From Thermoproteota archaeon (GTDB lineage: Archaea; Asgardarchaeota; Njordarchaeia; Njordarchaeales; Panguiarchaeaceae), in NCBI GenBank assembly GCA_024720975.1, contig JANJXX010000001.1, positions 1 through 63,397 on the forward strand: a stretch of 63,397 nucleotides of DNA, written 5' to 3'. Below the pieces are notes generated by a model. That model did no database searches. It saw only the letters and a program-made list of their open reading frames with translations, and was not told where the DNA came from. Positions 39,464 to 48,387 of the stretch are shown one piece after another. Each line of letters opens with the position of its first letter. Position 1 is the first letter of the stretch. The position numbers were made by a program, and so were the translations under genes.

Positions 39464-39997
39464 TTAAGTAACCTTAACATGCTCCTTCATTTTTGAAAGG
39501 ATCTGCACTATCTTTTCTTTCTTATTGTTCCAGTTGTTAAAGTTATCGACTATTATGTCTCTAATCCACTTCACTAGCATATTTAACTCCTCTTCTACTT
39601 CCCGCTCTTTAGTAGAGTCTAGTCCTTTCCTTTTGAGCATTCTTTTGGTATTTTCTATCTCTTCAATAAGGCTGTTTGCATCCTGAATCGCTCTGTAGGC
39701 ATCAGTAACTCTAGAGATGTCTTCCTCCAGAATACTCATGGCTCTATAGAATTCGGAGCCGCTGATTGATTCAATAACACCTATATTTTCGATAAGAACT
39801 TTGAGTGCCGCCTTAATAGAAAGTTTGGGAGTCTCAAATATTTCAAGTCTCTTGTTTTTGGTGAGCTTTCTAACGGATACTACTGCCTCCTCTCCTTGCG
39901 ATAACCACCAATAATTCGACAACTCAGTAGACATTCTTTCTTTTATGCTACTTAATTTTTGGGATAGCTCCCTGAGCTGTTGTTTTCCATAGGCCAT
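39464..39997 (-). CDS. Unknown alpha-helical protein, paralogue of 47161-47748; last gene of the ESCRT-like operon
   Basis: Shares WWxxQGxxxVVxVRKL...PK[LM]xxxxAL[KR]V...N, IxDAxxLxEE and a C-terminal W motif with 47161-47748. Confidence 0.75.
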   Translation of the reverse strand: MAYGKQQLRELSQKLSSIKERMSTELSNYWWLSQGEEAVVSVRKLTKNKRLEIFETPKLSIKAALKVLIENIGVIESISGSEFYRAMSILEEDISRVTDAYRAIQDANSLIEEIENTKRMLKRKGLDSTKEREVEEELNMLVKWIRDIIVDNFNNWNNKKEKIVQILSKMKEHVKVT

Positions 39998-39998
39998 G

Positions 39999-41318
39999 CT
40001 AACTCCTCTTCGTGATATTCTTCTCAAACTCTATAAGTTCTTGATTTATACGCGAGTATATCAATCCTTCTACGATTTCTGGAGATATATTCCTCAATAC
40101 AGTAAGCTCTTCGGGTAGTGCCCGCTCTTTTACGACTCTTTCTAGTAATTTGACTACATTTGGTTTGTATATTACTCGGTTTTCCCTAACTACTATATCT
40201 CCCCTGCTAAGTGTTGAAGCAAGTTCCAATAGGCTAGTCGTGGTCTTTTTATCGGCACCTATTAGCATTTTTATCTCATCAACGAATACCATGGGGCGAT
40301 CTTTGAACACTTCAGAAATCCATGGGACGAGTTTTTGCCTATTCACTAGCATTCTATCAATTGTGACCACTTCTGAGAAGTATTTCTCAATGTCTTCGAG
40401 TATTCTAGTCACCAACTTAGAGTCCAGACCGAATTTTGCAGCCAACTCTTCTCGAGATAGAATTACACTCTCCTTAGTGATATTTTCTATATACTTCGCC
40501 AGGTCATTTGGTATATATATGAGCTTATCTTCCAGTATCCGCATCTCTGGAAATATTTCTTTTACTTTGCTAAACACATCAATAGTAAGTTTTGGCTCTA
40601 GTGAGAGCTCCCTGGCTTGATCGCTTATTCTAACGTAACCCTTTTCTGCTAGAAGATTTTCAACATATGCTTTGAGTTTATCCTTCATGGTTACGTACTC
40701 TTTGCTTGTAATTATATTCGGATCTATCTCAGGCAGTCTCTTTAGAATATCATAGAGATCTCTCTCCCTTACACCAAAATCCTTCGCAAGTTCAGATAGC
40801 CTCTTTACAGGCTTTCCACTTGAAAACAGTTCCATTAGGACTTCTCTTACAATGTTTAACTCATGCTTTCCAAACTCCTTGATTCTCCCGGCGAGTAGGT
40901 TTACGTACCTCTTACATCCATCAATGAAAACTTCGCGACCATAAGCTTCTTTGCTAAGAATTTCTCTCGTATTTTCAACCAATAAAATTATCTCGGTTTC
41001 CTTAGTGGCCACTTCTGCTAGTTTTTTTGCAACTGGTAGCGTATCTTTACTTATCCCAACCTTATGAAATAGCGACGTCATAAACGCTAGAATAAGAGCA
41101 TACGATCTTAATGCATCAATGTATTTATCCGGCGAAGGAAATGCAGATTTTAGTGGCATAAGGCTCATTAACAAGCTCTCGAGTTCCCCAAGACCCGTAG
41201 ATAAATCATGGTCTCTTTTCTCTATGGCAGCAACCCTTGCTTCTCGGAGGATATGTAAAGCTGCAGATCTCTCTATCGAGATGAACTGCTCGAGCTGATA
41301 TCTCACAACCGAGCTCAA
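39999..41318 (-). CDS. Helical N-domain plus about 4 tandem winged-helix repeats (UFL1/DDRGK/ESCRT-II-like)
   Basis: Repeats about every 62 aa: LSELAKDFGV, VRISDQARELSL, LSREELAAKFGL, VFVDEIKMLIGA, each followed by a helix and a beta-hairpin. The TTG start overlaps the upstream TGA. Confidence 0.7.
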   Translation of the reverse strand: MSSVVRYQLEQFISIERSAALHILREARVAAIEKRDHDLSTGLGELESLLMSLMPLKSAFPSPDKYIDALRSYALILAFMTSLFHKVGISKDTLPVAKKLAEVATKETEIILLVENTREILSKEAYGREVFIDGCKRYVNLLAGRIKEFGKHELNIVREVLMELFSSGKPVKRLSELAKDFGVRERDLYDILKRLPEIDPNIITSKEYVTMKDKLKAYVENLLAEKGYVRISDQARELSLEPKLTIDVFSKVKEIFPEMRILEDKLIYIPNDLAKYIENITKESVILSREELAAKFGLDSKLVTRILEDIEKYFSEVVTIDRMLVNRQKLVPWISEVFKDRPMVFVDEIKMLIGADKKTTTSLLELASTLSRGDIVVRENRVIYKPNVVKLLERVVKERALPEELTVLRNISPEIVEGLIYSRINQELIEFEKNITKRS

Positions 41319-41911
41319 GTTTCGCCCACCAGCGATTTTAATAATCCACATTCATGTGAAAATCCAACGCCTAAAACATCACAAACAAACATATTGAATT
41401 GAGACCTCCTCAACAACTCATTCAACTCTTCATGAATCTCTCGTATGACTTCATTTCGATCCTTATTTGGATCAGGTCTTTTATTGGTTACGGCAATCCT
41501 TAATAATCTGCGAAGTTCATCCTTCACCATGTCTAGGGTTATTGTTATTTCCTTAGCTCCAACTAGGCTGCTCACGAGCGCTTGTTGGCTTCTAGGAATC
41601 AAAGATACTGTTACATTAATACCATAATCAAATGGCAAGTTCATTTTAGGTATACCTATAGTTAATTCAAGCGGAGTTCTGCGGGCCCATACAACACGAG
41701 CTGGACGATAGTATATTTTGTAGAAGCCTGGTTCAGATATGTATTTTATAAGCCCGTTTGGACACACAACATGTGCTTCTTCGAATTCATATAGTCTTAT
41801 TACGTCGGGGTCTTTTTCGGTTATCTCTCTGCAATACAATACAACACCCTGCCGTGGTGCTTCGATATATTTGTTCTTATCAAATACTGGGCGTGATTTT
41901 TCAAAACACAT
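41315..41911 (-). CDS. SPFH/band-7 (YdjI-like) domain protein
   Basis: IRLYEFEEAHVVCPNG...EPGFYKI...VVWARR..LELTIG...YGINVTVSL..LVSSLVG...ITLDMVKDELRRLL follows the YdjI-type SPFH pattern; no TM. Confidence 0.6.
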   Translation of the reverse strand: MCFEKSRPVFDKNKYIEAPRQGVVLYCREITEKDPDVIRLYEFEEAHVVCPNGLIKYISEPGFYKIYYRPARVVWARRTPLELTIGIPKMNLPFDYGINVTVSLIPRSQQALVSSLVGAKEITITLDMVKDELRRLLRIAVTNKRPDPNKDRNEVIREIHEELNELLRRSQFNMFVCDVLGVGFSHECGLLKSLVGET

Positions 41912-47195: not shown

Positions 47196-47748
47196 TCACC
47201 GACGCGGTCTCTTTTCTTTTTGCAGTCAGTTTTTCTGCTAGCTCTAGAACTTTCTTTACCTCCTTTTTAATTCTCTCCCTTTCGGATGGCCAGGAGAATA
47301 CATCCAATGCAAGAATTTCTCTTAACCGCTTTATGATGTTGTTAGCTGCATCTATAAATTCATCAAGAGCTTCTGGTCTTGATTTTGATATACTTTCCCT
47401 TACGGCATGCAATTCTTCTGCCAAGTTATGAGCATCAATTATGTAACTTACAGCCTGAAGCACGAGATAGAGGTCCTGAGCAGTCTTAAGTGCATAATCG
47501 ATTCTATCCTTTGATTGCAGCTTCCTGATTAACTCAAAGTTCGATTGTATAACTCTTAGTGCCTCTAGAAGGGGCATTTTTGGCAGGTAATCAAATGAGA
47601 TTTTATCACCAATTTCCAACTTTCTGACGTTAACTACCGGAATCGAACCCTGTTCAAACCACCACCACTCTATCGATACCTCCCTAACAAAGCTTATTAT
47701 CCGCATTAATGAGTCCATCATATATTCGTAAGATTTTTCAACACTCAT
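47161..47748 (-). CDS. Unknown alpha-helical protein, paralogue of 39464-39997
   Basis: WWWFEQGSIPVVNVRKL...LPKMPLLEALRVIQSN; lies between the two ESCRT-III-like genes. Confidence 0.75.
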   Translation of the reverse strand: MSVEKSYEYMMDSLMRIISFVREVSIEWWWFEQGSIPVVNVRKLEIGDKISFDYLPKMPLLEALRVIQSNFELIRKLQSKDRIDYALKTAQDLYLVLQAVSYIIDAHNLAEELHAVRESISKSRPEALDEFIDAANNIIKRLREILALDVFSWPSERERIKKEVKKVLELAEKLTAKRKETASVIERVVQEEEKS

Positions 47749-47751
47749 ACC

Positions 47752-48387
47752 CTACTCCTCAACACCATACTTTTCCATAAGTTTTTGAAGCTCCTTTCTC
47801 GTAACCTCCTCTGGTTCTTTAACCCCATACTCTTCCTCGAGTTCCTCTAACACCTCCGAAGTTGCAGTCTCTTTCATAAGTTCCTCGAATGCTTCTGCAT
47901 GTTCTGTGATAGTCTCGACAAACTCTGAGACAACAGTTGAACTACTCATAACTTTTTCCCACGCCGTCACAGGGTCCACCCCTCTCTGAACTGTATCAAC
48001 AACTATATCTCTAAGATTTTCGAGTAGCATTAATTGCGCTTCATAGAGCTTTGTTTGTGAGTCAAGCATTTTTATTCTGCCAAGTTTCGCCTGCGAAACT
48101 TTCTTGGATAGCTTAAGCTCCTTCAACATGCTCCTAATCTTCCTAGTATTATTCTCTCTCCAGCCTCTTATGATTGCTATTTTTTCCTCAAAGAGTTCAT
48201 CAATACTTCTTGCGAGCCTATCTCTTTCTATGTCTGGTAGCTTTGAGACACCCTCAGAAATTCTCCTTAAAGTCTCTCTTATGGCCTGCGGGCTCAATTT
48301 CTGCTTGCTAGTGATTTCGACGAGATCTCTAAGAGCTCTAACTTCATCTATGATTTGTTTCCCAATGTTCTTTTTCCGTCCAAACAA
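47752..48387 (-). CDS. Divergent ESCRT-III-like coiled-coil protein (start TTG 48387, MFGRKK)
   Basis: FGRKK N-terminus, basic central hairpin, acidic tail with duplicated L..L.E.YGV.E helices; first gene of the operon. Confidence 0.55.
   Translation of the reverse strand: MFGRKKNIGKQIIDEVRALRDLVEITSKQKLSPQAIRETLRRISEGVSKLPDIERDRLARSIDELFEEKIAIIRGWRENNTRKIRSMLKELKLSKKVSQAKLGRIKMLDSQTKLYEAQLMLLENLRDIVVDTVQRGVDPVTAWEKVMSSSTVVSEFVETITEHAEAFEELMKETATSEVLEELEEEYGVKEPEEVTRKELQKLMEKYGVEE

Follow-up and report, generated by a model that had tools for sequence, protein, structure and literature searches.

A ten-gene operon with a Vps4-clade ATPase and a candidate ESCRT-III protein in an Asgard archaeon of the Njordarchaeia

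The window analysed here is a stretch of 63,397 nucleotides of an Asgard archaeon placed in the Njordarchaeia (NCBI GenBank assembly GCA_024720975.1, contig JANJXX010000001.1, positions 1 to 63,397), whose genome assembly comprises 1.36 Mb in 29 contigs and is 81% complete. It contains an operon of ten open reading frames (ORFs), all on the minus strand at 39464-48396 in the ORF listing and tightly coupled, which we named P1 to P10 in transcription order. With a probability of about 0.65, we read this operon as encoding a paralogous and highly divergent ESCRT-III/Vps4-type membrane-remodelling machine of Asgard archaea, probably of Njordarchaeia, as predicted by sequence comparison. The intergenic spacings from P1 to P10 are 3, -35, 2, 6, 8, -1, 10, -37 and -29 nt, in agreement with a preliminary description of this DNA, which had reported ten co-oriented genes with gaps of 10 nt or less, or overlaps. 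P1 starts with a GTG codon at 48396, and the start at 48387 given in that description is an in-frame alternative three codons in. The AT-rich spacer of 252 nt upstream of P1 (48397-48648, minus strand) contains TATA-like TTTATTTATA and TTTTAATA stretches and is the probable promoter of the operon. At the downstream border, a spacer of 178 nt is followed by a convergent DeoC-like gene (DeoC-type aldolase). The same ten genes were found in the same order at three further loci (L008, L009 and L010) with protein identities of 32-77% (tblastn; one genome per species scanned). Such a recurrence at these identities indicates that the arrangement is beyond chance, and it answers positively whether the gene order is kept in other archaea.

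P4 (45406-46608, 400 aa) is predicted to be a single-AAA ATPase of the Vps4 clade. It is composed of an MIT-like N-terminal domain of three helices (residues ~1-75), a linker, an AAA core and a Vps4_C-like end. The Walker A (GPPGTGKT), Walker B (IVFIDEVD) and pore loop (SKWLGESEK) motifs are intact, the pore loop being identical to that of canonical Asgard Vps4, and P4 is apparently active as an ATPase. In Pfam, P4 matched AAA with 126.8 bits and Vps4_C with 21.9 bits, barely above the cut-off of 21.3. The NCBIfam model of CdvC (NF041006) aligned with P4 end to end (5-395) at 215.5 bits, far under its cut-off of 650. Full-length relatives of P4 (43-83% identity) all came from metagenome-assembled genomes (MAGs) of Asgard archaea, and the next matches were Cdc48. 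In a maximum-likelihood tree of 47 AAA domains, which was drawn from Asgard genomes only and contains no CdvC, eukaryotic Vps4 or katanin/spastin, the P4-type ATPases formed one clade (100/100) that was sister to canonical Asgard Vps4 (98/92) and lay outside Cdc48 D1, Cdc48 D2 and PAN. The Pfam MIT model had no match in P4. When the N-terminal domains of the P4 family were compared with the MIT region of canonical Asgard Vps4, hhalign gave a probability of 93.1% (P 3.2e-7) over 65 columns covering the three helices, and reversed controls gave P 6-8e-4. From these comparisons, we assign P4 to the Vps4 clade as a paralogue that carries an MIT-like domain. The earlier labelling of this gene as an ATPase with an N-terminal MIT domain is thus borne out in the sense of an MIT-like domain, and the phylogenetic placement beside Vps4 and outside Cdc48 holds for a tree without CdvC.

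P3 (46611-47195, 194 aa) is the candidate ESCRT-III protein. It starts with a basic N-terminus (MSVLFKKKK), which is followed by an alpha1-alpha2 hairpin at residues 11-92, and the C-terminal tail is invariant in alignments of its family (SIG.EFL..LK..DP.LY..IPE.IK.K). This family is very small: the 90% collection contains 19 clusters of it, and a set of 1.84 billion proteins yielded 28 representatives. Comparison of the P3-family profile (A3) with 23 canonical Asgard ESCRT-III proteins gave an hhalign probability of 95.3% (P 2.2e-8; columns 3-94 against 11-114). The match runs in register over 92 columns that correspond to the N-terminal motif and the alpha1-alpha2 hairpin (alpha0-alpha2). 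Reversed alignments gave P 0.014-0.13, and the other helical families of the locus gave P of at least 0.003. A hidden Markov model (HMM) of A3 also picked up a Pfam-verified Snf7 ORF of genome G024, again in register (E 6.7e-4). The net charge of P3 is +10 over residues 1-80 and -8 over residues 121-194, and two canonical Asgard ESCRT-III proteins show a like polarity. The AF2 model of P3 (pLDDT 66) contains the expected helices. It aligned over its whole length with the closed N-terminal domain of Ist1 (Z 8.9, 140 residues), and also with CHMP3 (Z 7.8, root-mean-square deviation 2.6) and CdvB2 (Z 7.1, root-mean-square deviation 2.4), but Z scores of 7-9 are in the chance range for helical proteins and BAR domains match the model equally. 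Therefore, the fold evidence alone is not decisive. On the profile match, with the non-decisive fold resemblance beside it, we place P3 in the ESCRT-III superfamily as a remote homologue, as the preliminary description had proposed for this gene. A complex prediction of the P4 MIT region (residues 1-85) with the P3 tail (residues 135-194) scored 0.01, below the mark, and weighs neither way.

Strong matches to the P3 family were found in about 14 of 400 Asgard genomes, distributed over about nine families. In 11 of 13 loci from about nine families (the 1.9-kb contig of genome G140 being left unexamined), a P4-family ATPase gene comes immediately after the gene of the P3 family, and the expected co-occurrence of homologues is therefore observed. 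At the locus of genome G145, a canonical-clade Vps4 stands beside the P3-family gene instead of a P4-family ATPase. The P3-like protein of this locus (L031 645-2467, G145:C84) has 198 aa and fits the P3-family profile (E 8.5e-16) with no Pfam Snf7 match, and its gene adjoins that of an ATPase grouping with canonical Vps4 in the tree. This pair may stand midway between the canonical system and the divergent one. This DNA is present in hot-spring metagenomes of at least five studies, and close homologues are labelled Njordarchaeota or Njordarchaeia, with some older labels of Bathyarchaeota or Nitrososphaerota.

Two forms of the system can be distinguished. Type I, the form of the window, was found only in the window's genus (five of five genomes) and in one genome of a sister family (G008), where two contigs share it, one with P6-P1-P2-P3-P4-P5-P10 and the other with P7-P8-P9. 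Type II, seen for example at L011, L027, L028, L029 and L030, is spread over no fewer than five other Asgard families. It begins with a single P3-like gene or two of them, continues with a P4-like ATPase, a P1-like protein of ~218 aa and a protein of ~269 aa and, further on, has an S8 subtilase. Some type II loci add a 115-aa protein and a P5-like protein before the subtilase.

P1 (47752-48396, 214 aa) had also been assigned to ESCRT-III in the preliminary description, and this assignment is not supported. Its resemblance to ESCRT-III is limited to the LLLFGRKK motif near the N-terminus, a long hairpin (residues 55-138) and a charge polarity (net +12 over residues 1-120 and -16 over residues 121-214, with an acidic C-terminal half). 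Against Asgard ESCRT-III proteins, hhalign probabilities stayed below 6%, both with a narrow P1 profile and with a widened one that included the type II relatives. The AF2 model (pLDDT 78.5) gave only unspecific matches in VIA, Foldseek and atlas searches, namely BAR, I-BAR and, for the hairpin alone, CHMP4B (Z 6.9). Only 19 homologues of P1 were found. P1 is homologous to the product of the ~218-aa gene located 3' of the ATPase gene in type II loci (hhalign 95%, P 3.7e-8, 185 columns). We therefore describe P1 as a conserved helical partner outside recognised families, whose membership in ESCRT-III could not be shown.

P2 (47161-47748, 195 aa) and P10 (39464-40027, 187 aa), the last gene of the operon, are paralogues according to cross-matches in tblastn (1e-9 to 1e-14) and in HMM searches. 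Their family is characterized by a WWW..QG..V.VR motif followed by helices. It had no match in Pfam, NCBIfam or profile searches, and hhalign comparisons with ESCRT-III, P1, P3 and Vps25 gave no signal. The ~269-aa protein of type II loci is weakly similar to P2 and P10 (P 0.003). Because type I and type II have these families in common, we conclude from the predicted homologies that P3, P4 and P1, probably with P2, form the conserved core, and that the remainder is a lineage-specific accessory set.

The accessory genes P5 to P9 had been labelled SNAP/TPR-like, ~7-transmembrane, Zn ribbon with FG-GAP propeller, SPFH-like and tandem winged helix, and these labels stood to different degrees. For P1, P2, P5, P6, P8, P9 and P10, no usable match came from Pfam, NCBIfam or PADLOC, and HMM searches of PDB sequences with the P1, P5, P8 and P9 families returned only coiled-coil and designed-protein noise. 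P7 (41922-43577, 551 aa) consists of a Zn ribbon, a helical region and an FG-GAP beta-propeller. The propeller passed the Pfam cut-offs of FG-GAP_3 (41.2 bits against 26.9; 2.6e-10), FG-GAP (28.9 bits against 22.1; 1e-6) and Beta-prop_BBS7 (29.2 bits against 27). The N-terminal part of P7 has a CxxC..CxxC pattern with weak Pfam Zn-ribbon matches at residues 18-39. We regard a propeller of the FG-GAP, BBS7/ITFG2-like kind and a Zn ribbon as solid predictions. P7 has no signal peptide, transmembrane segment or other hydrophobic segment, and is therefore predicted to be cytoplasmic. A full-length homologue (28% identity) is encoded by G008.

P6 (43577-44233, 218 aa) is a polytopic membrane protein, the only membrane protein of the operon, with about six to seven hydrophobic segments by the Kyte-Doolittle scale, so that its earlier label is also solid. 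It has no family match in Pfam or NCBIfam, and its homologue heads the G008 cluster. P5 (44242-45399, 385 aa) is predicted to have an N-terminal solenoid (residues ~1-180) and a C-terminal part with no recognised fold. Its language-model (atlas) features reached 0.85-0.88 to archaeal SNAP/TPR clusters, and its model reached a TM of 0.42 to alpha-SNAP over residues 1-180. P5 is thus probably SNAP/TPR-like, an assignment that we use as a lead only. Homologues of P5 occur in G008 and at one type II locus (L027, E 1.2e-9).

P8 (41315-41911, 198 aa) is probably an SPFH/Band-7-like protein. Its language-model features reached 0.93-0.94, with Band_7 clusters making up 41 of 100 matches and clusters of the MVP shoulder also among them. 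In a comparison with eight Asgard SPFH proteins, hhalign gave a probability of 35% (P 3.9e-4; reversed control 0.2) with 129 columns in register, which is suggestive and not significant. P8 has no transmembrane segment and no Pfam Band_7 or PDB match. Four cysteines are invariant in the P8 family: C2 (right after the start methionine), C50, C177 and C188.

P9 (39999-41351, 450 aa) has a helical N-terminal part followed by repeats of ~65 aa. By hhalign, the three repeats at residues 165-232, 232-298 and 298-362 are homologous to one another (90-96%, P 1e-6 to 1e-9), and a fourth is doubtful. While the repeats are solid, their winged-helix nature is suggested by a winged-helix-like pattern and by weak matches of the winged helix-turn-helix type, i.e. 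the winged-helix region of E3_UFM1_ligase (0.0086), MntR, GntR and MarR. P9 showed no similarity to Asgard Vps25, and its atlas search gave no usable match. Homologues of P7, P8 and P9 turned up only in genomes with the type I core, and those of P7 and P9 were not found in genomes lacking it. P7 and P9 evolve fast, with 32-33% identity where P4 keeps 65%.

This fast evolution is one of several observations that would suit a conflict or defence module, the main alternative reading of the operon. In such a module, the ESCRT-III-like and Vps4-like proteins would respond to an attacking virus by sealing or sacrificing the membrane, in the role of switch or effector, with P7, P5 and P9 as sensors and P6 and P8 as the membrane target. 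The mechanism overlaps that of the membrane-remodelling machine and the role differs. The patchy distribution described above (about 14 of 400 Asgard genomes) fits a defence role, as does the exchange of the accessory set, since the type II core is followed by an S8 subtilase. Furthermore, type II stands back to back with conflict-type genes in three families (L028 1-11320 in G170, L029 1-14063 in G112 and L030 1-14188 in G051). These neighbours encode two DO-GTPases (DO-GTPase1/2), GAP1-N2 and a protein of ~1000 aa; DO-GTPase and GAP1-N2 genes have been predicted to form conflict systems (Kaur et al. 2020, PMC7159879). The ATPase and the type II subtilases also match IetA and IetS of PADLOC at domain level (110 bits for P4 against IetA). 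On the corresponding NCBIfam model, IteA, P4 scored 105 bits against a cut-off of 510, half of its score on the CdvC model (215 bits). The window operon itself contains no protease, nuclease, GTPase or other recognisable effector, and PADLOC gave only a generic AAA match in it. It is present in all five genomes of the genus, and its chromosomal context is conserved across divergent congeners and is not island-like. Because a related module pairs the core with a subtilase beside DO-GTPase/GAP1 conflict genes, we leave a small but real chance to a defence role of the window operon, which we otherwise consider unlikely.

We also compared the distribution of the operon with that of the canonical ESCRT genes. 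In a sample of 41 genomes of the phylum, which includes the window genome, the Pfam Snf7 model detected ESCRT-III genes in 34, with one to three in each. Most of the canonical loci that were fetched had two Snf7 genes side by side, several of them beside an MIT-bearing Vps4 N-terminus. In the window genome, the Snf7 model found nothing, and P4 was the only protein to cover the N-terminal (MIT) part of the CdvC model, the other strong matches being two Cdc48 genes. The same CdvC-model search recovered no PAN-type proteasome ATPase in this genome, whereas PAN was found in G014, G024 and G037; the PAN gene may lie in the unassembled 19%. In the five genomes of the genus, we found no Snf7, no Vps25 (PF05871, 0/5), no EAP30 (PF04157) over the cut-off and no canonical Vps4. 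As a positive control, Vps25 was recovered in five of five control Asgard genomes, two of them of the same order. The window genome encodes FtsZ (G000:C11:349940-350428).

G008 possesses a canonical locus and type I together. Therefore, the type I system is a paralogue and not a fast-evolving canonical orthologue. In the window's genus, the operon appears to be the only ESCRT-like system left. The earlier proposal of a second ESCRT system consequently holds for G008, which has both systems, and does not hold for the window's genus, in which no canonical genes were found in the five genomes. Huang et al. 2025 (PMC12411855) inferred that Vps4 and Snf7 were lost in Panguiarchaeum, a branch of the Njordarchaeia with reduced genomes. 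The absence of canonical genes from the genus matches this reported loss and, with the operon present, qualifies it.

Several results weigh against reading the operon as a paralogous ESCRT-III/Vps4-type machine, in addition to the Asgard-only sampling of the AAA tree and the BAR-domain matches of P3. The Pfam Snf7 model (PF03357) had no match to P1 or P3 at E<=1, NCBIfam likewise gave none, and not one of 29 P3-family members scanned with Pfam showed a Snf7 match. In HMM searches against the PDB, the narrow P3 profile reached only E 0.45 to Snf7 and the broad A3 profile reached nothing. Raw scores place the AAA core of P4 as near to Cdc48 D2 as to Vps4, P1 gave no ESCRT-III signal in profile and fold searches, and the five genomes of the genus are only 75-83% complete. 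The association of the type II core with a protease and conflict-type genes belongs on the same side. Finally, the data show no more than the families to which P3, P4 and P7 belong, the paralogy and the co-occurrence, and we infer membrane binding, polymerisation and all the adaptor contacts.

Some of these results could be explained if the operon had no ESCRT kinship and encoded a Cdc48-like unfoldase with coiled-coil substrates or adaptors, the hairpins being convergent. Indeed, the best PDB and NCBIfam scores of P4 are to VAT/Cdc48 D2, no curated model of Snf7 matches, and the structural matches are non-specific. However, the tree joins P4 to Vps4 (98/92) and not to Cdc48 D2, the N-terminal domain of P4 resembles MIT, unlike the N-domain of Cdc48, and the profile match of P3 (P 2e-8) is five orders of magnitude below all the helical and reversed controls. 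For these three reasons, we consider the absence of ESCRT kinship very improbable.

The surroundings of the operon are also conserved. Three MAG contigs with the full operon, one labelled Candidatus Njordarchaeota and two labelled uncultured Nitrososphaerota, have conserved flanks on both sides, and the GC content of the operon is that of the remaining window. The stability of the flanks across congeners and the unremarkable GC content argue for vertical inheritance. Upstream of the operon are two minus-strand ORFs (48649-49668, 339 aa; 49779-51353, 524 aa) and a plus-strand ORF (51520-53112, 530 aa), none of which had a Pfam or PADLOC match. L009 and L010 both retain the two minus-strand ORFs upstream of the operon; the homologues begin with a hydrophobic segment and are possibly surface proteins.

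On the other side, the DeoC-like gene separates the ESCRT-like operon from a four-gene operon on the minus strand (34483-38513), which encodes a putative ubiquitin-like protein (Ubl) of 143 aa, a putative E2 of 455 aa, a protease of the JAB/MPN type and a ThiF-type E1. L008, L009 and L010 show this order as well, with the DeoC-like gene inverted in L010.

This neighbourhood raises the possibility that the two operons work together in a sorting process that depends on a Ubl tag, which P9 or P7 would read, and that replaces the lost ubiquitin-ESCRT pathway. Such a process would be a special case of the paralogous membrane-remodelling machine. The ThiF-type E1 and JAB protease genes are 1-5 kb downstream of the operon, and the order of ESCRT-like operon, DeoC, Ubl, E2 and JAB is maintained in all three related loci. 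P9 has the weak match to the UFM1 E3 ligase in its winged-helix region, and a link with ubiquitin exists for the canonical Asgard ESCRT (Makarova et al. 2024, PMC11188069). On the contrary, an unrelated gene lies between the two operons and is inverted at one locus, the four genomes are all close kin so that the adjacency may be inherited by descent, and the Pfam scan found no ubiquitin-binding domain (UEV, GLUE or NZF). We thus regard a Ubl-dependent function as quite improbable.

One metatranscriptome library (X13, sediment) contained short contigs 91-97% identical to the window on P9, P7 and P4. Contigs at 45286-45453 and 46558-46828 (96-97% identical) span the P5-P4 and P4-P3 junctions. 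About two thirds of the operon had no X13 contig, which is not evidence of silence. The contigs hint at transcription of the operon in a related strain, and the hint is only weak because carry-over of DNA in the library is possible.

If the operon encodes the paralogous ESCRT-III/Vps4-type machine, its products may act as follows. P6 and P8 would mark a membrane patch, and the soluble adaptors P5, P7 and P9 would link this patch or a cargo to P3. P3 would polymerise on the membrane, possibly with P1. P4 would dock through its MIT domain on the invariant acidic, proline-containing tail of P3 and would extract subunits with ATP, driving remodelling or recycling of the polymer. The outputs may be vesicle budding, membrane repair or sorting.

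A broader proposal, which we put forward as tentative and hold to be less probable than the machine itself, is that Asgard archaea possess a second, ancient ESCRT-like machine that evolved independently of the canonical ubiquitin-ESCRT. It would comprise the Vps4 sister clade, a cryptic ESCRT-III protein and the families of P1 and P2, and would exist in two forms. The membrane-adaptor form, with its SNAP-like protein, BBS7/ITFG2-like propeller, SPFH-like protein and winged-helix array, would have become the sole ESCRT-like system in a Njordarchaeial lineage with a reduced genome, for which loss of ESCRT has been reported, and the form linked to a protease and GTPases would be used in conflict.

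ESCRT is the best-studied eukaryote-like machine of Asgard archaea, and its presence or loss informs reconstructions of their cell biology. If the operon is functional, a 'loss of ESCRT' would be a replacement by a paralogous system that standard models miss; the lineage has probably kept a second, so far undescribed version of ESCRT instead of losing the machinery. The accessory set also offers new candidate routes for the recruitment of an ESCRT-III polymer, i.e. the propeller, solenoid, SPFH-like protein, winged-helix array and membrane protein. In addition, the kinship with the subtilase/GTPase module raises the question of whether ESCRT-III and Vps4 were recruited to archaeal conflict systems. 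The gene set is not described in the full texts of Makarova et al. 2024 (including its Asgard section), Huang et al. 2025, Kaur et al. 2020, the Evolla preprint and the structural-clustering preprint PMC13734099, a search limited to these texts with subscription papers and supplementary tables outside it.

Among related systems, the type II module has a homologous core. The P3 families are homologous, the P4-type ATPases form one clade (100/100), and the P1 families match at 95% in hhalign, possibly along with P2. It differs in that a subtilase and neighbours of the GTPase systems replace the membrane, propeller, SPFH-like and winged-helix set, and in its occurrence in other Asgard families. 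The IetAS system consists of the AAA ATPase IetA and the S8 protease IetS. It resembles the two forms in the domain-level matches of P4 to IetA and of the type II subtilases to IetS. In contrast, there is no protease among the ten genes of the operon, and P4 is nearer to Vps4 and CdvC than to IteA. To our knowledge, IetAS has no ESCRT-III-like partner.

The crenarchaeal/TACK CdvABC system shares with the operon the combination of ESCRT-III and a Vps4-type ATPase, and P4 spans the CdvC model from end to end. Unlike CdvABC, the operon has no CdvA, and P4 reaches 215 bits on a model whose cut-off is 650. A role in cell division is not required of the operon, because the organism has FtsZ. By functional analogy only, the bacterial PspA-YdjGHI and Vipp1 envelope-stress systems may also be compared with it, as they tie an ESCRT-III-superfamily protein to SPFH and Zn-ribbon proteins at the membrane. 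YdjI is known to localise PspA (cited in PMC11188069). These bacterial systems differ in having no Vps4-type ATPase.

Parallels for the accessory set come from the non-Asgard variants Meth_adaptin, with SPFH and Zn-ribbon proteins, and Halo_adaptin, with a PspA-like ESCRT-III, a duplicated winged helix, a beta-propeller and a membrane protein (Makarova et al. 2024, PMC11188069). Compared by description, these variants and the operon have in common an SPFH-like protein, a Zn ribbon, a beta-propeller, a repeated winged helix and a membrane protein around a Vps4-like ATPase and a barely recognisable ESCRT-III. However, the variants belong to another phylum, and their propellers are of the WD40/PQQ type whereas that of P7 is FG-GAP/BBS7-like. 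No adaptin-appendage, IG or TBP domains were detected in the operon, Halo_adaptin lacks the MIT-like domain that P4 keeps, and the P1 and P2/P10 families and a SNAP/TPR-like protein such as P5 are not described in either variant.

The canonical Asgard locus encodes Vps4, ESCRT-IIIA/B (Vps2/24/46 and Vps20/32/60), Vps25, Vps22/36, Vps28 and Vps23 (Hatano et al. 2022; Makarova et al. 2024, PMC11188069). In both this locus and the operon, a gene of the ESCRT-III family is directly upstream of an MIT-bearing Vps4-clade ATPase, and proteins with putative winged-helix repeats are part of the set. Both occur in the same phylum, and their ATPases are sister clades. They differ in that P3 is invisible to the Snf7 model, that no homologues of Vps25, Vps22, Vps28 or Vps23 were found in the operon, and that the operon is strictly one-directional and has six to eight accessory proteins of other families. 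The comparison thus agrees with the preliminary description in that neither cdvABC nor the canonical Asgard locus has this accessory set. The canonical locus coexists with type I in G008, and type I stands alone in the window's genus.

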